This document shows positions 1,437 to 64,000 of a stretch of 64,000 nt of DNA, piece by piece. Both the position numbers and the translations under genes were made by a program. Each line of letters begins with the position of its first letter. The stretch's first letter is position 1. The stretch covers positions 14,548 through 78,547 of the forward strand of contig JACQWO010000025.1 of the NCBI GenBank assembly GCA_016209225.1, given 5' to 3'. The notes under the pieces were generated by a model. It was not told where the DNA came from and did not search any database. It saw only the letters and a program-made list of their open reading frames with translations. This stretch comes from Desulfobacterales bacterium. GTDB lineage: Bacteria; Desulfobacterota; UBA8473.

Positions 1437-3299
1437 CTACGATGCAAACGACTCCTCAGCTATCTCGACTACACTCTTATCCCCTGATTTTATCGCCCTG
1501 ACCTTACTGATCACCGTAGGAAGAACCGTATTAGCATAGAACTTGGCAGCAGCGATCTTACCGCTGTAAAAAGCGGCATCTTTGTTGCCAGATATGAGTT
1601 TTCTTATGCTCTCCTGATCCAAAGCCCCCTCTTTTGCCATAATCTCCTTGAGTTTCTTATCTGCTATAGTTGCCTGCCAGAGTAGCATCCATCCAAGGGC
1701 AACCATGCCGAAGACTTCCAGATATGGGTACGCGTTGATAATGGGGATAATGAAATCCGGGCCTCTGGCGATCTGGCCAAAGTGCATGCTCACTTCTGCC
1801 AGTGAATTCTTGGCCTTTTCAAACCCCTCTATATAACTCTTGAGTGTTTCGTTTGATTTATTAGCTTCAATGAAACTATTCATGTCAGTCAAGAAATTCA
1901 TTAAGACGCCGCCTTTTTTCATCCCCAACTTCCTGGCCACGAGATCCAGCGCCTGGATACCATTTGCCCCTTCGTAGAGAGATGCAATCTTATTGTCCCT
2001 GAGGAGTTGCTCCACCGGATATTCGGAGCAGTAACCGTATCCACCGTACACCTGGATGGCCTCCTTTATTATATAAAAGGACATATCACTGAAGAATGCC
2101 TTGCACACAGGGGTAAACAGGGCTATGTAATCCGCGTATTTTTCCCTTTCGTTCTCATCTTTTGCCGTAACCTCTTTATCCTCACAATAGGCTATATAGT
2201 ATGCAAACGCCCTCATGCCTTCCACGTAACTCTTCATCCATAGAAGCATTCTTCGGACATCCGGATGATTGATTATGGGAACCTGGGGTGCGTTGGGGTC
2301 CTTCATGCTCATAATACTGGCCCCTTGAAGCCTCTCTTTTGCATAGGCAACGGCATTGAGGTATGCGGAGCTGGCCTGTCCCAAGGATTGGAGTCCCACT
2401 CCCAATCTGGCCTCGTTCATCATGTGGAACATGATCTTCATGCCTTCGTTCTCTCCCCCTAAAAGCTCACCGATGCATCTGCCATTGTCTCCAAAATTCA
2501 GGGTAGTCGTTGCCGAACCGTTAATCCCAAGCTTATGCTCTATACCGCTGCAGAAGACGTCATTGTCTTCACCAAGACTTCCATCTTCATTAACCCTGAT
2601 CTTTGGAACCAAAAACAGGGATATCCCTTTTGTTCCCGGGGGTGCCCCCTGAATCCTGGCGAGAACAGGATGTATTATGTTTTTCGTCAGATTATGTTCC
2701 CCTGCCGTGATAAAGGATTTGGTGCCCATTATAGTATACGTGCCATCTTCGTTCTTTTTTGCAATTGTCTTGGTAGCGCCCACATCGCTTCCTGCACCCG
2801 GCTCAGTAAGGCACATGGTGCCTGCCCATTCACCGGAATACATCCTCTCCATGTATTTCTTCTTCTGCTCTTCCGTACCATATATCTCTATGAGCTTGGC
2901 CGCTCCATGAGTAAGCATTGCATACCCTCCCAGTGCACCATTTGCCGCGGCACAGTATTCTTCTATCGGTGCAAATATGGTAAAAGGCAACCCCTGTCCG
3001 CCTATCTCAGGATCCTCGGTAGGGGTAATCCACCCTCCTTCTTTATAGAGTCTGAATGCCTCATGAAAACATTCAGGCACCGTCACCTTGCCATTTTCAT
3101 ACTTGCAGCCTTCCCTGTCCCCTTTTTCTCTTGTAGGCAGTAACACATTTACCGCCAGCTTCCTCGCCTCCTCAATAACCATATCAAAGTCCTGTTTTGT
3201 AAAATCCTTATATTTCTCAGTCTTACACAGATCCTCAACGCATAACTGTTCGTGCAATACAAACTCTACATCTCTCTCATCGACTAATAGATTTCCCAT
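1437..3299 (-). CDS. Acyl-CoA dehydrogenase, long form with C-terminal extension domain
   Basis: 620 aa. The ACAD N-terminal, middle and C-terminal regions are all recognisable (YEGANGIQALDLV, GGYGY motifs). The roughly 200-aa C-terminal extension is as in FadE/AcdA-type long ACADs. Confidence 0.85.
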   Translation of the reverse strand: MGNLLVDERDVEFVLHEQLCVEDLCKTEKYKDFTKQDFDMVIEEARKLAVNVLLPTREKGDREGCKYENGKVTVPECFHEAFRLYKEGGWITPTEDPEIGGQGLPFTIFAPIEEYCAAANGALGGYAMLTHGAAKLIEIYGTEEQKKKYMERMYSGEWAGTMCLTEPGAGSDVGATKTIAKKNEDGTYTIMGTKSFITAGEHNLTKNIIHPVLARIQGAPPGTKGISLFLVPKIRVNEDGSLGEDNDVFCSGIEHKLGINGSATTTLNFGDNGRCIGELLGGENEGMKIMFHMMNEARLGVGLQSLGQASSAYLNAVAYAKERLQGASIMSMKDPNAPQVPIINHPDVRRMLLWMKSYVEGMRAFAYYIAYCEDKEVTAKDENEREKYADYIALFTPVCKAFFSDMSFYIIKEAIQVYGGYGYCSEYPVEQLLRDNKIASLYEGANGIQALDLVARKLGMKKGGVLMNFLTDMNSFIEANKSNETLKSYIEGFEKAKNSLAEVSMHFGQIARGPDFIIPIINAYPYLEVFGMVALGWMLLWQATIADKKLKEIMAKEGALDQESIRKLISGNKDAAFYSGKIAAAKFYANTVLPTVISKVRAIKSGDKSVVEIAEESFAS

Positions 3300-11954: not shown

Positions 11955-13631
11955 ATGATCAACTTCATTCGCAATATCATAGCGGAGGATTTGAAGGCAA
12001 ACAAGAATGGCGGTCGGGTCCATACTCGATTTCCACCGGAACCAAACGGCTATCTGCATATCGGACATGCCAAGTCTATCTGCCTTAATTTTGGTCTTGC
12101 CGCTGAAAGCCACGGTCTTTGCAATTTACGATTCGATGATACCAACCCCAGTAAAGAAAGCACTGAATACATTGAATCAATAAAATCGGATATCAAATGG
12201 CTTGGTTTCGATTGGGGTGATGGACTCTTTTACACATCTGACTATTTTGAGAAGCTATACCGGTATGCTGTACAGTTAATCAAAAAGGGGAAGGCGTACG
12301 TTTGCGACTTGAGTCCAGAGGAGATTAGAGAGTACCGTGGCACCTTGACCGAGCCTGGCAAAGACAGTCCTTATTGTAAGCGTTCCGCAGAAGAGAACCT
12401 TGACCTGTTCGAACGCATGCGGGCAGGAGAATTCGAGGAAGGCTCCCGGGTGCTTCGAGCAAAAATCGATATGTCATCCCCAAATTTAAATATGCGTGAT
12501 CCGGTACTTTACCGTATCCTTCGCATACCACATCACCGAACGGGCGACAAGTGGTGCATATATCCCATGTATGATTATGCCCATTGCCTTTCTGATTCCA
12601 TTGAAGGGATTACACATTCTATTTGTACGCTGGAATTTGAAGATCATCGTCCGTTATACGATTGGGTGCTTGACCAACTGAACGTCGATTGCCATCCGCA
12701 GCAAATCGAATTCGCTCGTCTCAATCTGAACTACACAGTGATGAGTAAACGTAAGCTTCTGGAATTGGTGGAAAACGGACATGTCAGCGGATGGGACGAT
12801 CCACGGATGCCTACACTATCGGGTCTGCGGAGACGCGGATACACACCAGAGTCAATCCGAAACTTCTGTGAACGCATCGGAGTAGCAAAGAGGGATAGTG
12901 TGGTTGATGTGGCATTACTCGAGCACTGTATTCGTGAAGACCTAAATCAAAGCGCCCCACGGGTTATGGCCGTGTTGCGTCCACTCCGGGTAGTCATTGA
13001 TAATTATCCGGAAGGTAAAATAGAAGAGCTGGATGCACCTTATCATCCGGATGACCCAAGTATGGGGTCACGGAAGATTCCGTTCTCACACGTGCTGTAT
13101 ATAGAACAAGAGGATTTTCTTGAGGATCCGCCGAAAAAGTTCTTCCGTTTGGCCCCTGGCCGTGAAGTGCGCCTACGATATGCTTATTACATCACGTGTG
13201 TAGATGTGGTAAAGGATAAACGAACCGGAGAAGTGGTCGAATTGCACTGTACTTATGATCCTGAGACACGCGGCGGTTGGTCTCGAGATGGACGCAAGGT
13301 TAAGGCTACGCTGCACTGGGTTTCTGGATTCCACTCTATCCCGGCTGAGGTACGCCTCTATGATCATCTGTTCACGAAAGAAAACCCAAACGAAGAAAAG
13401 GACAACATTGACTTCAAGACTTATTTAAATCCGAACTCGCTTGAGATTTTGACTTCGTGCCGTGTTGAACCAGTCCTTGCAAATGCCACACCGGGGAGTC
13501 GGTACCAGTTTGAAAGGATCGGCTATTTCAGCGTCGATTCAGTTGATTCATCCGATGGAGCGCTGGTGTTTAACCGGACTGTGACGTTACGTGATTCGTG
13601 GACAAAGATCGCTAAAAGGGAGAAGTTTTAG
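11955..13631 (+). CDS. glnS: Glutamine--tRNA ligase
   Basis: 558 aa. Contains the HIGH motif ([12 protein letters not shown]), KMSKS motif (VMSKRK), and colinear similarity to E. coli GlnRS throughout ([36 protein letters not shown]). Confidence 0.95.
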
Positions 13632-58582: not shown

Positions 58583-59797
58583 TCACGAGTTCTTCCCTTG
58601 CATACTGATCTTTCCATAAACACCATCATACCCTGGTGTAATATCCAATTTTCCTTCTCTTACCTTCATGATTCCCTCTAAGATATTTGGTTGGGTAAGC
58701 CCGACCAGTTCATCCCTGGATATATCTAAGAGGATGTTAAACTCATTTCCCCCCTTTGCTATCATCTTTCCATACTCTCTTCTCACTTTGGCTGTATTTA
58801 CACCGCATCCCAGCACTTCAGCGATAATTTCCTCCAGTGGAACCAGATGCCTGGCAGGGATCGCCCCCTCTGGCACAAAACCCTCAGTGCGATCCGAGAG
58901 GGCCTCTACGCGGTGCATTACCCCGATAGTAAGCCTTTTTTTGCACACCGGACATATATTATCGTTGTTTCTGCTCTCAGATGGAGAAAAGAGAATACCA
59001 CAGTTTCTGTGTCCATCATAGTGATATTTCCCCTCTTCAGGAAAGAATTCAACAGTAAAGAGCAGCTTACTGCGATCCTTTTCTCTCAGACACTTCATGA
59101 TTTGATTATAGTTCAAATCACAATTAAAGACATTTGCCTCCCTGCCTATTTTGGCGGGTGAATGAGCATCGGAGTTGGAAATAAGGGCGATTCTGTCCAA
59201 GGCAGAAAGCCTCCAGTTCATTGCCGGGTCCGAAGATAAGCCGGTTTCAATAGCATGTATATGCTCAGATTGATCCCCGAAACACTCCTCCAGGGAATCA
59301 AAACCTGAGTTAGCCCCGAAGAGAGAGAACCAGGGAGTCCATGCGTGTGCAGGTACTAGAAAACACTCTTCTGATGTATCCAATACCAGCTTGACCAGAT
59401 CTTTGACATGGAATCCGAAGGTGGGTCTGCCGTCGGAACCAAGCTTGCCTCTTCTCCCCAATTTTGCGTTTACCTTCTCCACTACCTCTAAAGTAGGGGC
59501 AAAGATAAGTGTATGAACCTTATGGAGCTTCCCCGCCTGAGAGAAGATATTGCTTACCTCGGCAGTCAAGACAAAGCGAACGTTTTTGCTTCCGTTCTTT
59601 AAGGTTAGAAGGTTACCATCAGAAGGTTCAAGTTTCGTTTTAAGTTCAGCAAAGTATAGGGGATGGGTAAAGTCTCCTGTTCCCAACAGGGTGATTCCCT
59701 TAATCTCTGCCCATTTGCTCAGGGTTTCAACTTCCATATCCTTGCTTGTTGCCCTGCTATATCTGGAATGGACATGGAAATCTGCTATGAATCTCAT
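58583..59797 (-). CDS. PHP-domain protein, endonuclease Q (EndoQ/TIGR00375)-like
   Basis: ADFHVHSRYSRATSKDM...LLGTGDFTHP, PAHAWTPWFSLFG and SNSDAHSP follow the EndoQ PHP motif order. The zinc finger CPVCKK is in the C-terminal half. Confidence 0.55.
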   Translation of the reverse strand: MRFIADFHVHSRYSRATSKDMEVETLSKWAEIKGITLLGTGDFTHPLYFAELKTKLEPSDGNLLTLKNGSKNVRFVLTAEVSNIFSQAGKLHKVHTLIFAPTLEVVEKVNAKLGRRGKLGSDGRPTFGFHVKDLVKLVLDTSEECFLVPAHAWTPWFSLFGANSGFDSLEECFGDQSEHIHAIETGLSSDPAMNWRLSALDRIALISNSDAHSPAKIGREANVFNCDLNYNQIMKCLREKDRSKLLFTVEFFPEEGKYHYDGHRNCGILFSPSESRNNDNICPVCKKRLTIGVMHRVEALSDRTEGFVPEGAIPARHLVPLEEIIAEVLGCGVNTAKVRREYGKMIAKGGNEFNILLDISRDELVGLTQPNILEGIMKVREGKLDITPGYDGVYGKISMQGKNS

Positions 59798-59819: not shown

Positions 59820-60215
59820 TTATATAATCTTCACCAAAAACTTTCTGTTTCTTGGGCCATCGAACTCGCAGAAGAATACCGACTGCCATGTTCCTAAAAC
59901 CAGCCTTCCGTCCTCTACAATGATAGTTTCGGAAGACCCCACAAGGCTGGCCTTTATATGGGCGTCTGAGTTTCCTTCGGTATGGCGATAGTTATCATCA
60001 AAGGGGATAACCTTTCCAAGCCCCATAATGATATCCCTTGGAACATTGGGATCAGCATTCTCATTTATAGTGACAGCCGCTGTGGTATGGGGAACAAAGA
60101 CACAACAGATTCCATTTCTCACCTTACTTTCAGTAACTGCCTTTTGAATCTGATGGGTAATGTCCAGCATCTCTGTCCGTTGGCCGGTTTTAACTGAAAA
60201 TGTCTGCATTTCCAA
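59820..60215 (-). CDS. YjbQ/UPF0047-family protein (secondary thiamine-phosphate synthase-like)
   Basis: VPHTTAAVTINENADP...HTEGNSDAHIKASLVGSS matches YjbQ throughout. Confidence 0.75.
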   Translation of the reverse strand: MEMQTFSVKTGQRTEMLDITHQIQKAVTESKVRNGICCVFVPHTTAAVTINENADPNVPRDIIMGLGKVIPFDDNYRHTEGNSDAHIKASLVGSSETIIVEDGRLVLGTWQSVFFCEFDGPRNRKFLVKII

Positions 60216-60610
60216 TAATCTCCACTTATTCTACTTTCTGCCATTTAACTCAAGGCTATTTTTCAGCATAACTTTTAGACAAGGGTTAGTCAAACCTTTT
60301 TTGATTGTGTCAAGTTTAACCATATGCATTCTTATACTGCCTGATGTCCAACCCCCCTATATTTTTGGGCTATTTGACTCTTGACATACAAGCCCCTTTC
60401 CACTATATTAATGTCCTTCCTTCTAAGGGAGGAGTTTAAGGGGAATTCAGAAGGGCTTATGAAAAAAATTATTGTTTGAGATTCTTGTTCCCATGCTCTG
60501 CATAGGAATGCAGAGCATCGCTGGTTATTGCAGATGAAAAGCCCCAGATTTTTGTGCAGATGGGAACCAAAAGTGATATAATACAAACAAATTTAAAACT
60601 GGAGTTTATT

Positions 60611-60802
60611 ATGAAGGTGGTTATAGAAGTTGAAAACGAGGAGGAAATAAAGAGGGTTAGAGGGATTCTAAAAGGGGAACATATTACAGTAGTTAAGACA
60701 CGAAAAGAGAGAGATATGATATTGGAAGATATTTTCAATAAGTTTAATATAAGACTGCCTAAAGACTTCAAACTTGACAGGGAAGAATTACATGCAAGAT
60801 AG
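60611..60802 (+). CDS. VapB-like antitoxin (small; partner of the PIN gene)
   Basis: MKVVIEVENEEEIKRVRGILK..., with RBS GGAG. Its end overlaps the PIN gene start by 11 nt. An extended -10 (TGATATAAT) lies about 30 nt upstream. Confidence 0.45.
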   Translation: MKVVIEVENEEEIKRVRGILKGEHITVVKTRKERDMILEDIFNKFNIRLPKDFKLDREELHAR

Positions 60803-61156
60803 GGTCTTTATAGATACAAATGTTCTCATCTATTTTATAAGCGATGACATAAAAAAGAAGATAAAGGCAAAAGAAATACTATTTTTAAGAGGCGAACCTG
60901 TCATCAGTTCTCAAGTTATAAGTGAATTTGTTAATGCCTGCCTGACAAAATTATGGATGCTCTGGAATTTTCTTTAATAGAGGAAACCACCATAAAGAAA
61001 TCCCTTCAAATAAAGAAAACCTATAACTACTCCTATTGGGATTGCCTGATAATAGCCTCTGCCTTAGAAAACAACTGCACGATTTTATACACCGAAGATA
61101 TGCAGGATGGACATACCATTGAAAATAGATTAAAGATTGTTAATCCATTTGTTTAA
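60792..61156 (+). pseudogene. VapC PIN-domain toxin, split by a frameshift in an A4 run around 60950
   Basis: MQDRVFIDTNVLIYF...SSQVISEFVNACLTK shifts frame into ...SLIEETTIKK...YWDCLIIASALENNCTILYTEDMQDG. Together these give a complete roughly 121-aa PIN domain with the conserved D, E, D and D positions. Confidence 0.6.
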
Positions 61157-61212
61157 GGTGATTTTGTATGCCTTAACGGGTAATATAGAAATCGCTGTTA
61201 GGAGGCTTATAA

Positions 61213-61425
61213 ATGCCTGTTTTAAAGTATAAGACGTTTGAGGCTGCAGAGAAGAGTCTCTGGAATTTTATGCCTGATGATAATTATTTTAAGATGGTTC
61301 TGTCTTTAAACAACACGATGTTTAAGAAAACAATAGTCAAAGATTTTCCTCACGGCGTTCACAAATATAAATCTCTGAAAGACGCTCAAAAGGACATAGA
61401 AAATTGGCTGATGAAAAGAGCATAG
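61213..61425 (+). CDS. Small hypothetical protein (70 aa) preceding and overlapping the NTase-fold gene
   Basis: No recognisable motif. Overlaps the next ORF by 22 nt, suggesting translational coupling. Confidence 0.3.
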   Translation: MPVLKYKTFEAAEKSLWNFMPDDNYFKMVLSLNNTMFKKTIVKDFPHGVHKYKSLKDAQKDIENWLMKRA

Positions 61426-61886
61426 ATGAAATTCTGCTTAATATCTGCAAGGCATTCAATTCCGAAGGCGTTTCATACGTCCTTATTGGCGGATGGGCAG
61501 TAATAATTCACGGATTTCCCCGCCTTACAAACGATATAGATTTTCTGATAGACAGTTCTGAAGAGAATATATCAAAGATAAAACTCGCACTGAATAAGGT
61601 GTTTAATGATAAATCTATTGATGAAATCGGGCTGAAGGATGTCGCTGAATATTCTGTTATAAGATACGTTTCTCCTGATTGGGTAACAATAGACTTAATG
61701 GCGAAGATCGGCGAGGTTGCAGAATATAAGAGCGTAACCGGGCATATAGTTGTATTTGAGATTCTTGGGAATGAGATTCCTGTTTTAGATGTGGAGGCTT
61801 TAATTAAGCTAAAAGATACAGTCAGAGATAAAGACAAAATGGACTTGGGTTTTCTGAAAGAAAAACTCAAAAAGGGAAAAACGTAA
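61404..61886 (+). CDS. Nucleotidyltransferase-fold protein (AbiEii/NTP_transf_5-like minimal NTase)
   Basis: VLIGGWAVIIHGFPRLTNDIDFLID matches the G[GS]x9-13Dh[DE]h NTase signature. 160 aa. Confidence 0.5.
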   Translation: MADEKSIDEILLNICKAFNSEGVSYVLIGGWAVIIHGFPRLTNDIDFLIDSSEENISKIKLALNKVFNDKSIDEIGLKDVAEYSVIRYVSPDWVTIDLMAKIGEVAEYKSVTGHIVVFEILGNEIPVLDVEALIKLKDTVRDKDKMDLGFLKEKLKKGKT

Positions 61887-61928
61887 TATCAAAAGTTGAT
61901 GCAAACCCCCGAATTAAGGAGGGTGAGA

Positions 61929-64000
61929 ATGAAAATATTCAATAAAATAACCCTGCCGGGAATTTTGATTATTTTTGCAATCCTATTTCTTGCATCATGT
62001 ACGACAACACCTAAACTTAATCTTATTAAAAGCTCCGGGGTTTCCATGGAGTTAACAAAACCAGCATCTTATGTTTTTTCTGTACTTTTTTCTCCAGATG
62101 GCAAATATGCGTTATCAGGAAGTTTGGATAACAACGTCACCATTTGGGACATTAAAACAGGGAACAAAAGCAGAACTTTAAACTTACTATCTGGTGACGT
62201 TCCCGGCGTTTCCGCTCTGTCGATGTCCCATGATGGTAAATATCTGCTTGCCGGGATGAAAGGCGGCGGATGGGTCAAACTGTGGAACGTTGAAACAGGG
62301 AAAGAAATAAGGAGTCTGCCTGGGCATTCTTTTACCGAGGCAATGGAAGCGCTGGCTTTTTCTCCGGACGGCAAGTATGCAGTCACAGGAGGATCATATC
62401 TCATTAAACAGTGGAATGTGACAACAGGAAAAGAGTTGGGAACCATCGAACATGCAACTTTTTTCGAGAGGAACCAGCCTTATGCCATGGCTTTTTCCCC
62501 TGATAGAAGATATGCATTCGCCAAGGGGTTAGCTGGTTTTATCAGTCTTTGGGATATCCAGGCCAGAAAAAGGCTTTGGATCTACGGCGCAAACACCGGG
62601 CACTACCCACGGGGCGGCCTTTTTAACACTTCTGTACAATTTTCCCCTGACGGAGAATATATTCTGTCGGGGGAGGGAGAAAAACTGAAGCTCCGGGATG
62701 CCGCTTCCGGGCAAACCATCAGGACTTTTGTCGATGAAGCTTCCGGCCGAATAGATGCCGTGGCATTTTCCTCCGATGGGAAATATGCCCTTTCAGGTTC
62801 TATGGATGGAAACATAAGACTCTGGGATGTTCAGACAGGAGTAAAGTTAAAGAAATTTGCCGGGCACTCGGACGAGGTATCTTCCGTTGCTTTTTCCCCT
62901 GATGGGAAGTACGTTCTTTCCGGTGGAGACGCATCAACAAGGTTGTGGGATGCATCAACTGGTGCAGAGATAGCAACAATGATGCAATTTGACGAAAGAG
63001 AATGGCTTGTAATCACATCGGAAGGTTATTACAACTCATCTGAGAAGGGCGCACAGTATCTGAATGTTAAATTTGAGGGGAAAGACTACACTGTAGAGCA
63101 ATTTTACGACGTTTTTTACCGCCCAGACATAGTAGCAGCAAAGCTAAGGGGAGAAGACATAAGCGGTTTGATAACTATTACGATGAAAGACGCAATAAAA
63201 AGTCCACCACCTGTTGTTGAGATAAGCCCAGTCACACCATCCCCAACCTCTCCAAAGGCAAAGGTCTGCTATAACATAAAAAGCACAGGAGGAGGCATTG
63301 GAGAGATAAGGCTATTCCATAACGGAAAACTCATAGAATCAGACGGATACTACAAAGAGGCGGCAAAAACATCTGATAAGATGCAATTAGCTTCCCTTAC
63401 AAGCAATAAAATCTATGAAGATATGAGAAGCGTGAAGATTAAAGGTGTTGGTGAAATAAGCCCAATAACAAGCAAAACAAAGGGAGAGGTTTTTGAAGAC
63501 TGCAAAGAGGTGGATGCGATACACGGGGAAAACGAGATAAGTATAACAGCCTTTAACAAAGACAACACAGTGCAGGGCTACATGCAGACAGCAAAATTCA
63601 ACTCAACAATAAAACGAGAAGAACCGCATCTCTACATTCTTTCTGTAGGCATTGATAAATATAATGACAGCACCGTAACGCTCAAATATGCCACTAAAGA
63701 CGCAACCGATATCGAGCAGAAACTACTCAAGCAAACGGCTACAGTGTATAAGCCCCAGAACATTCATTATGAACTCTTGACAGATGATAAAGCCAGTAAA
63801 GGAAGCATCATCAACAAGATCAACGAGCTTTCCCGTGTTGTTAAGCCGAATGACGGTTTTATCTTCTTTGTGGCAGGTCACGGCGTGCTTCTCCAGAGCC
63901 AGTATTACATGCTTACCCATGAGTATAACGGCACGGCCAATGAAAACGCCATGATCAGCTCCAACGAGATAGTGGAGATGTCAAAAAAGATAAAGTCCTT
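61929..64000 (+). CDS. Lipoprotein with WD40 repeats and a C-terminal caspase-like (peptidase C14) domain; partial, runs off the window end
   Basis: Not in the ORF track because there is no stop in the window. MKIFNKITLPGILIIFAILFLASC is a lipobox. At least 7 WD repeats of the form FSPDGKY..SGS.D..I.LWD follow. The C-terminus HLYILSVGIDKYNDSTVTLKYATKDATD...DGFIFFVAGHGV carries the caspase H and G dyad region. Confidence 0.75.
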   Translation, partial: MKIFNKITLPGILIIFAILFLASCTTTPKLNLIKSSGVSMELTKPASYVFSVLFSPDGKYALSGSLDNNVTIWDIKTGNKSRTLNLLSGDVPGVSALSMSHDGKYLLAGMKGGGWVKLWNVETGKEIRSLPGHSFTEAMEALAFSPDGKYAVTGGSYLIKQWNVTTGKELGTIEHATFFERNQPYAMAFSPDRRYAFAKGLAGFISLWDIQARKRLWIYGANTGHYPRGGLFNTSVQFSPDGEYILSGEGEKLKLRDAASGQTIRTFVDEASGRIDAVAFSSDGKYALSGSMDGNIRLWDVQTGVKLKKFAGHSDEVSSVAFSPDGKYVLSGGDASTRLWDASTGAEIATMMQFDEREWLVITSEGYYNSSEKGAQYLNVKFEGKDYTVEQFYDVFYRPDIVAAKLRGEDISGLITITMKDAIKSPPPVVEISPVTPSPTSPKAKVCYNIKSTGGGIGEIRLFHNGKLIESDGYYKEAAKTSDKMQLASLTSNKIYEDMRSVKIKGVGEISPITSKTKGEVFEDCKEVDAIHGENEISITAFNKDNTVQGYMQTAKFNSTIKREEPHLYILSVGIDKYNDSTVTLKYATKDATDIEQKLLKQTATVYKPQNIHYELLTDDKASKGSIINKINELSRVVKPNDGFIFFVAGHGVLLQSQYYMLTHEYNGTANENAMISSNEIVEMSKKIKS

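Follow-up and report, generated by a model that had tools for sequence, protein, structure and literature searches.

Near the end of a 64,000-nucleotide stretch of DNA from a Desulfobacterales bacterium (assembly GCA_016209225.1, contig JACQWO010000025.1, positions 14,548 to 78,547; hereafter the window), two overlapping genes encode a 70-residue helical protein, orf70, and a 160-residue nucleotidyltransferase (NTase). Judged by comparison with relatives, the two are a real conserved module under purifying selection. By its motifs and profile matches, the 160-residue enzyme is a minimal DUF1814/AbiEii/MenT-type NTase related to MenT1 of Mycobacterium tuberculosis. We think it probable that the NTase is a MenT-like toxin that acts as a tRNA 3'-end nucleotidyltransferase, and that orf70 is a new type of proteinaceous antitoxin, predicted to work by binding and possibly by phosphorylation of Thr42. 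The pair lies between a vapBC-type module and a gene for a WD40-caspase lipoprotein. All three units are of known kinds; the only modestly new element is the orf70 family as a regular partner of minimal MenT1-like NTases.

Coordinates below are window positions, and all five reading frames of 60611-64000, its last 3.4 kb, lie on the forward (+) strand. L-numbers denote loci of relatives and P-numbers proteins. The two genes of the module are:

61213..61425 (+): orf70, a 70-residue small helical protein, putative NTase antitoxin or partner, with an AGGAGG ribosome-binding site 7 nucleotides (nt) upstream
61404..61886 (+): minimal AbiEii/MenT-type NTase, 160 residues, TTG start, overlapping orf70 by 22 nt; assigned from Pfam and motifs

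The NTase is related to MenT1

A first-pass annotation of this DNA had described a 70-residue open reading frame (ORF) overlapping a minimal NTase by 22 nt, which is what we find, and had suggested searching the enzyme with hidden Markov models (HMMs). The NTase matched the Pfam families AbiEii (24.3 bits, cutoff 22.5), DUF2204 (22.8 bits, cutoff 20.3) and DUF6036, the last also matched by distant family members, and scored below the cutoff for Aminoglyc_resit (20.3 bits, cutoff 21). We found 64 close-to-moderate homologues, and more than 500 in metagenomes. In alignments of 25-30 homologues, G29, G30, R40, T42, D44, D46, K137, R141, D144 and D147 were invariant, and D97, the acidic residue of motif III, was nearly so. 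G29, G30, D44 and D46 represent motifs I and II of the pol-beta fold (GG...D-x-D). The C-terminal motif IV, K-x3-R-x2-D-x2-D, was likewise invariant and aligned with the motif-IV region of MenT1, including its K137; in the published definitions of the DUF1814 motifs, a C-terminal motif IV (K...R..D..D) is unique to DUF1814 (PMC10435456). The invariant Thr42, a putative phospho-acceptor two residues before the first catalytic Asp, aligned with T39 of MenT1.

Searched against the PDB, the family profile matched MenT1 of M. tuberculosis (8AN4, 8AN5, 8RR5) far better than anything else (E = 7.3e-10 for 8an4, positions 10-152), with LnuA and TM1012 next at ~1e-2 to 1e-3 (LnuA 2e-3). The HMM alignment paired T39, D41 and K137 of MenT1 with T42, D44 and K137 of the window's NTase, and placed D152 of MenT1 within the D144/D147 motif. 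The function of MenT1 depends on T39, D41, K137 and D152 (PMC10435456, PMC11375011). MenT1 adds CMP (cytidine monophosphate) to tRNA 3' ends, and its 68-residue helical antitoxin, MenA1, both sequesters the toxin and induces its auto-phosphorylation at T39 (PMC10435456, PMC11375011). An AlphaFold2 (AF2) model of the window's enzyme had a predicted local distance difference test score (pLDDT) of 88.9. The top Foldseek match of this model was TM1012 (2EWR, E = 8.4e-6); MenT1 was matched with a TMq of 0.69, and LnuA and ANT(2'')-Ia were matched as well.

orf70 is a regular partner of the NTase

We surveyed the linkage of the two genes in 80 metagenome loci obtained from an NTase profile search, 10 of which were too short to judge. 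Scripted scoring placed an orf70-family gene directly upstream of the NTase, on the same strand, in 19 of the 70 informative loci, and directly downstream in 33. Seven more were counted by hand as downstream; the script had called them 'other', since their stop-to-stop segments begin inside the NTase gene. An orf70-family gene therefore adjoins the NTase on the same strand in 59/70 informative loci. Both gene orders were found, the small gene lying downstream of the NTase in most family members, and the pairing also occurs in KSB1 and Bacteroidota genomes. Two loci, L035 and L003, carry a variant partner in which only the C-terminal half of orf70 is conserved. The ratio of nonsynonymous to synonymous substitution rates (dN/dS) was 0.06-0.23 for orf70 and, in all comparisons but one, 0.07-0.16 for the NTase; the exception, 0.70 at a dS of 0.022 for the NTases of L038 and L059, carries little information because this pair is nearly identical.

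The orf70 family (locus tag of the window's member, HY739_05415) comprised 62 cluster representatives in an exhaustive HMMER search. A profile search returned 188 homologues, all annotated as 'hypothetical' and none with a Pfam domain. The family consensus is MPVxKYKTFEEAExALWxFxPDxxYxK...PxGxFKYKTxEEA...W. The AF2 model of orf70 consists of three helices (residues 9-16, 23-44 and 55-69; pLDDT 80.7, pTM 0.39). Searches with orf70 gave no match in Pfam or NCBIfam, HEPN families included, and no match in the PDB by sequence or, with Foldseek, by fold. Across 38-41 orf70 homologues the Rx4-6H motif was absent and neither Arg nor His was invariant at any position.

We also observed an internal repeat in orf70, KYKTFEAAEKSLW and KYKSLKDAQKDIENW, which is clearer in the family consensus, where [YF]K[YF]KT[FI]EEA appears twice; in the model, each copy forms an extended segment that leads into a helix. 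In L032-L034, a distant NTase/orf70 pair in which the NTase comes first has bAvd / 23S_rRNA_IVP four-helix-bundle genes on either side.

A predicted toxin with a proposed new kind of antitoxin

Its tight pairing, gene overlap, two gene orders, patchy distribution and low GC content make the pair look like a toxin-antitoxin module. In the mechanism that we propose, the NTase would stop translation through nucleotide addition to the 3' ends of tRNAs. The overlapping and translationally coupled orf70 would neutralise the enzyme by binding to it, and might also induce it to phosphorylate itself at the invariant Thr42.

The nearest characterised system is MenAT1 of M. tuberculosis (Rv0078B-Rv0078A; 8AN4, 8AN5, 8RR5). 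In both, the putative or known toxin is a short DUF1814/AbiEii-type NTase (196 residues in MenT1, 160 in the window), the T39, D41 and K137 equivalents are invariant in the window's family with D152 in the D144/D147 motif, and a small helical partner of ~68-70 residues, with no DNA-binding domain, is encoded just upstream. The two differ in that orf70 shows no similarity to MenA1 and has an internal repeat, in that the small gene lies downstream of the NTase in most orf70-family loci, and in the length of the window's enzyme, which is ~35 residues shorter. Given this lack of similarity in both sequence and fold, we rejected MenA1 as the identity of orf70.

The first-pass annotation had likened the pair to MNT/HepT or AbiE modules. 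A two-gene NTase module of the AbiEii kind is indeed what we see; neither named system is. AbiE (AbiEi-AbiEii, an abortive infection and type IV toxin-antitoxin system) shares with the window an NTase above the Pfam AbiEii threshold, with weak PADLOC matches to AbiEii and with motifs I to IV. The window's NTase is, however, about half the size of AbiEii, and the module has no AbiEi (COG5340, winged-helix) antitoxin; no AbiEi gene was found in 60150-62100. We rejected a canonical AbiE system because the partner is a 70-residue protein with no AbiEi/COG5340 winged helix. An MNT/HepT-like pair, with the NTase as antitoxin and the small protein as toxin, is very improbable: the gene sizes and overlap recall minimal NTase modules, but orf70 lacks the Rx4-6H motif, an invariant Arg/His and any HEPN match in Pfam or NCBIfam, its three-helix model is without a catalytic signature, and the NTase matches AbiEii/MenT rather than MNT families.

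Three points weigh against a tRNA-directed toxin with orf70 as its antitoxin. The match to AbiEii (PF08843), at 24.3 bits against a cutoff of 22.5, is marginal, and its alignment covers residues 23-87 only. TM1012, LnuA and ANT(2'')-Ia match the NTase fold about as well as MenT1 does, so that a small-molecule substrate has to be considered. Finally, the orf70 profile missed the MenA1 chain of 8AN5 at E-values up to 10, and Foldseek did not connect the two either. The enzyme might instead be a small-molecule NTase of the LnuA/ANT(2'')/TM1012 type, active in resistance or metabolism, with orf70 in an accessory or regulatory role. Foldseek places TM1012, LnuA and ANT(2'')-Ia close to MenT1, the Aminoglyc_resit score of 20.3 bits approaches its cutoff of 21, and many members of the NTase family lie among housekeeping genes. 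We nevertheless regard this as unlikely. In sequence the enzyme is much closer to MenT1 than to LnuA (E = 7.3e-10 against 2e-3); the invariant Thr that precedes the first Asp by two positions and the invariant K-x3-R-x2-D-x2-D motif correspond to residues shown to matter in MenT1; and an obligate small overlapping partner in both gene orders, a patchy distribution and low GC content are typical of toxin-antitoxin modules. The TM1012, DUF2204 and DUF6036 minimal NTases resemble the window's enzyme in that TM1012 is its best Foldseek match and DUF2204 scores above cutoff; these families are themselves without an assigned function or partner. Among the papers searched, we found no account of the function of these families: DUF6036 went unmentioned, and DUF2204 appeared only in an unrelated paper on DolP.

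vapC is a deletion pseudogene

Upstream of the orf70-NTase module lie two further overlapping genes:

60611..60802 (+): vapB-like antitoxin gene, 63 residues, intact; a homologue occupies the same place with the same overlap in L044-L048
60792..61156 (+): vapC (PIN) pseudogene; frame 1 covers 60792-60977, frame 3 covers 60953-61156, and the deletion junction is at 60947-60952

The first-pass annotation had read these genes as a vapBC pair with a frameshift in an A-run, had considered the PIN gene complete in domain content, and had left a pseudogene, a sequencing error and programmed slippage as explanations. The vapBC-type organisation and the break in the frame are both present. The end of vapB overlaps the PIN start codon (ATG at 60792) by 11 nt, and the PIN reading frame is broken at 60947-60955, with frame 1 running to 60977 and frame 3 from 60953 to 61156. 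When the frames are joined by a 1-nt repair, the product matches Pfam PIN (PF01850, 48.7 bits, cutoff 23.6, E = 1.4e-12) and reaches 14.3 against a cutoff of 80 for NCBIfam VapC. PIN signature residues are present in the remnant. NCBI annotates it as a 67-residue fragment only (P0149).

Comparison with intact relatives revealed the nature of the break. We found 860 relatives of the joined protein; the best 120 are almost all 135-136 residues long, and the joined product has 121. Alignment with P0065 and P0067 places a 15-residue gap exactly at the frame break, the missing residues being NLLKLDKVISLANKF, so the domain is not complete. At the DNA level, alignment with the intact genes of L044 and L045 (77% amino acid identity) shows one clean 43-nt gap (14-15 codons) in the window's vapC, flanked by ...CTGACAAAA and TTATGGATG..., and similar short A-rich words stand at both edges in the relatives. 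The junction in the window reads ACAAAATTATGG. The frame changes because 43 is not divisible by three, and with a gap of 43 nt the lesion is not an error in homopolymer length, nor would slippage be able to restore the missing helix.

These alignments identify the window's vapC as a deletion pseudogene beside an intact vapB, not an A-run slip. Of the three explanations offered before, the pseudogene is the one retained. The deletion probably occurred between short microhomologies of the ATAAA type, removing one helix of 14-15 residues and shifting the frame. By this reading the VapC toxin is dead, and vapB is a putative orphan antitoxin. Against it stands the fact that the 43-nt deletion is seen in a single assembly. 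Alternatively, the A4 run might have been misread in sequencing or might be a site of programmed -1 slippage, so that a full-length active PIN toxin is made after all; a -1 shift at AAAA (60947-60950) would indeed join both frames into a product that still scores as PIN. We consider this very improbable, with a joined product of 121 residues against 135-136 in at least 100 relatives, a clean 43-nt gap rather than a 1-nt difference in the DNA alignment, and no slippery heptamer or downstream structure found at the break.

As in VapBC (PIN type II toxin-antitoxin) systems, a small upstream gene overlaps the PIN gene, and a 63-residue vapB homologue with the same 11-nt overlap precedes the intact PIN genes of L044-L048. 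Unlike in those systems, the toxin gene of the window is inactivated by the 43-nt deletion and the antitoxin matches no named VapB or other antitoxin family: the window's vapB had no match, whether to an RHH, AbrB, Phd or HTH fold or otherwise, in Pfam, NCBIfam or the PDB.

The last gene encodes a WD40-caspase lipoprotein

The final gene, truncated by the end of the window, has the following parts:

61929..64000 (+): WD40-caspase lipoprotein gene, 5' 690 codons; open at the window end, with ~127 codons missing as judged from relatives
61929..62000 (+): predicted signal peptide with LASC lipobox (Cys24), assigned from the residues
62061..62963 (+): seven-bladed WD40 propeller, from Pfam WD40 (8.9e-48) and seven blade motifs
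63618..64000 (+): N-terminal part of a caspase (Peptidase_C14) domain; His651 codon at 63879-63881, Cys position beyond the window

The ORF starts 42 nt after the NTase stop, has an AAGGAGG site upstream, and is still open after 690 codons at 64000. Its product begins with MKIFNKITLPGILIIFAILFLASC, and the LASC lipobox occupies residues 21-24; most of the full-length relatives likewise have a conserved lipobox, L[AS][AS]C. Seven [FM]S[PHS]D[GR]xY blade motifs, spaced 42-49 residues apart, lie between residues 54 and 322, and the WD40 family (PF00400) matches at 8.9e-48. His651, in FFVAGHG, lies in the N-terminal part of the caspase domain. The assignment as a WD40-caspase lipoprotein, already made in the first-pass annotation, is borne out by the lipobox, the seven blades and this caspase start: the last gene encodes a WD40-caspase lipoprotein, predicted to be exported and lipid-anchored.

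Within the window, the partial caspase domain scores 21.0 bits for PF00656 (cutoff 21.4) and 1.1e-8 for the PADLOC caspase model; complete relatives score ~59 bits (L003, L042, L023), 64 (L031b) and 53 (L038). The window ends at ...SKKIKS, ~8 residues before the expected catalytic Cys, so the His/Cys dyad of this copy is predicted from relatives only. Scanning genomes with the half of the protein outside the WD40 propeller gave 28 caspase loci, and 23 full-length relatives were aligned. All 23 have the catalytic-Cys motif FDTCHAGG and all 23 keep the catalytic His, in AGHG in 22 and in ASHG in L021. The 28 loci lie in metagenome-assembled genomes (MAGs) labelled Nitrospirae/Thermodesulfovibrionales, Syntrophaceae/Syntrophales/Thermodesulfobacteriota, Nitrospinota and Deltaproteobacteria, several of which are multi-copy, and complete relatives are mostly 810-890 residues long. 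For the rest of the window's own gene, exact NTase matches occurred only in 2-kb Logan contigs, and the genome scan gave no 100% match.

In the protein, the seven-bladed WD40 propeller comes first, the middle region is a linker rich in beta structure, and the caspase domain stands last. It may act outside the cytoplasm on protein substrates recruited by a variable propeller. Prokaryotic orthocaspases have been reviewed (PMC5756287, PMC7475262). Like WD40 orthocaspases, the window's protein combines a WD40 propeller with a caspase domain of the p20 type, for which relatives show the Cys of the His/Cys dyad. It differs from them in its N-terminal lipoprotein signal, which makes it probably extracytoplasmic, in having the propeller before the caspase domain, and in belonging to a multi-copy, mosaic family in uncultivated Nitrospirota-, Syntrophales- and Nitrospinota-labelled MAGs, often near a DUF4384 lipoprotein.

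Across the caspase family (L003-L028, L031, L038, L042), the WD40 half is 27-71% identical to that of the window's protein and the C-terminal half 58-78%, and the two halves rank the relatives differently: L023 shows 71% and 64%, respectively, and L003 34% and 77%. This conflict suggests recombination or diversification of the propeller, the paralogues being apparent mosaics. A secreted or lipoprotein-like DUF4384 protein of ~284 residues (PF14326, 1.6e-23 in L015) recurs beside the caspase genes, at L004 975-1826, L005 2791-3645, L006 5706-6584, L007 416-1228, L015 6417-7271 and L031 10158-11024. It may be the real functional partner of the caspases.

The units are best read as separate neighbours

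The pair and the caspase gene could belong together, and several observations speak for more than accidental adjacency, and so against reading them as separate units. Closely related pairs (at least 78% identity) lie directly upstream of WD40-caspase genes in seven contexts (the window, L015, L007/L060, L031, L038, L042 and L058), whose outer flanks differ; in the closest clade this is the usual position of the pair. Across these contexts the NTases remain 78-89% identical, and the caspases fall to as little as 33% in their C-terminal halves (33-35% in L038 and L031b). In L003, a junction of this kind is occupied by an NTase of 44% identity. The linkage therefore exceeds pure chance and leaves room for a functional tie.

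On such grounds orf70, the NTase and the WD40-caspase might be one three-gene system, perhaps kept linked by selection, in which the pair controls or stabilises the caspase or is expressed together with it. The pair stands on the same strand directly upstream of the caspase in all seven contexts, the gaps are short (42 nt in the window, mostly 10-50 nt in relatives), and the window's gap contains no predicted terminator. The NTases are 78-89% identical where the caspases beside them vary from 33% to 76%, and in L003 the junction is taken by the 44%-identical NTase. Yet each part also persists alone. In L040/L041, L057, L059, L032-37 and L049-55 the pair is found with no caspase gene; relatives at 70-75% identity (L040/L041, L057) and nearly all distant ones lack a caspase neighbour. 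L059 shares the PgpA-LigT upstream context of L038 and has RecA instead of a caspase downstream, and in L058 the pair is kept beside a caspase gene with a large internal deletion, of which a 66-residue N-terminal and a 137-residue C-terminal piece are left. Conversely, 20/23 caspase loci have no NTase pair. The NTase has no signal peptide and the caspase is predicted to be exported, so direct contact between them is unlikely. We accordingly consider a three-gene system improbable.

The units are more likely to be independent neighbours in a variable, toxin-antitoxin-rich spot, and we favour this with some confidence. Homology of the module at the DNA level begins 3 to ~53 nt upstream of the orf70 ATG; it ends 3-13 nt after the NTase stop in some loci and runs shortly into the lipoprotein gene in others. 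Such variable ends are consistent with a junction that was inherited and then reshaped as paralogues recombined. The adjacency of pair and caspase in close relatives is most likely due to common descent of this junction in a recombining, paralogue-rich region. Other types of toxin-antitoxin module beside the caspases, in L006, L004 and L044, point to a toxin-antitoxin-rich variable region in general.

Several of these neighbourhoods can be described individually. L004 has a DUF433-DUF5615 module (1908-2519) beside its caspase paralogue, and in L006 a lone vapB homologue (2985-3188), 59% identical to that of the window, overlaps the caspase start. An intact vapBC (637-1225) lies near a caspase gene disrupted by an insertion sequence (IS) in L044, and L011 has a pair of small ORFs (12323-12792) resembling RelE/ParE by appearance only. 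L003 7347-12762 and L058 2507-6024 are orthologous, with a response regulator, a histidine kinase and flanks of 77% identity, and hold two very different orf70-NTase modules, with NTases 44% and 85% identical to the window's.

For the region as a whole, the first-pass annotation's term 'defence-like patch' was too strong: PADLOC gave weak single matches, the genes upstream are housekeeping ones, and the units occur separately elsewhere. We think, on balance, that the patch is a variable spot of low GC content holding selfish and accessory genes independent of one another, and not one defence system. The boldest reading would make orf70 a new, widespread antitoxin class for MenT1-like tRNA NTases, with the pair functionally tied in one clade to hypervariable exported WD40-caspases. 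The resulting three-gene unit would join a toxin of translation inside the cytoplasm to a protease locus acting outside it, and might serve, for instance, to guard a diversifying recognition system or to make the cell addicted to it. We hold this to be a long shot.

Genomic context and regulatory signals

The genes upstream of the patch are ordinary: an M16 peptidase, an amidohydrolase, a cobalamin adenosyltransferase, a PHP-like protein, UPF0047, a GGDEF protein and an aldolase. A 404-residue protein encoded at 58583-59797 on the reverse (-) strand, beginning MRFIADFHVHSRYS, has a weak match to PHP_C (0.003, below threshold) and may be a poorly modelled PHP-family enzyme. GC content is 33-36% over 60400-62000, which covers both toxin-antitoxin modules, against 40-49% in the upstream housekeeping genes and the downstream caspase gene; the dip is consistent with acquired DNA. 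PADLOC recognised no defined system in the gene set, only weak single-protein matches (AbiEii 7e-4, caspase 1.1e-8), and PHROGs gave only weak matches, of unknown function.

Two candidate signals precede vapB:

60381..60409 (+): sigma-70-like promoter candidate TTGACA-17-TATATT 5' of vapB, with 11/12 consensus matches; a consensus match only
60482..60572 (+): nested inverted repeats in the vapB leader, with 13-nt arms around a perfect 11-bp hairpin (60493-60518)

The inverted repeat (60482-60572; fold z-score -2.0) lies between the strong promoter-like site and the vapB start. It occurs once within the window and so is not a repeated element there, and an Rfam search of 60100-62100 found nothing credible, the inverted repeat included. 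It may be an operator or a leader structure. Upstream of orf70, a promoter-like block at 61157-61212, GATTTTGT.T.CCTAACGGGTA(T)AATATAG...AGGAGG, is common to the window, L015, L042 and also the L003 module, divergent as it is; in the remaining close relatives the sequence is unrelated as far as the ATG.

Implications

The apparent frameshift in vapC is a plain deletion pseudogene by our alignments and offers no basis for a claim of recoding. The WD40-caspase lipoproteins, multi-copy, mosaic and predicted to be exported in uncultivated anaerobes, appear to be an under-described branch of the orthocaspases. Practical gains are modest. For the minimal NTases now filed under DUF2204, DUF6036 or weak AbiEii matches, the presence of every MenT1 functional residue provides a concrete and testable assignment. 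These enzymes travel with a previously unnamed protein of ~70-85 residues, in either gene order and in several phyla. If orf70 is their antitoxin, it would add a new family to an already diverse MenA set, and antitoxin-induced auto-phosphorylation of a conserved Thr could be tested well beyond the mycobacteria.

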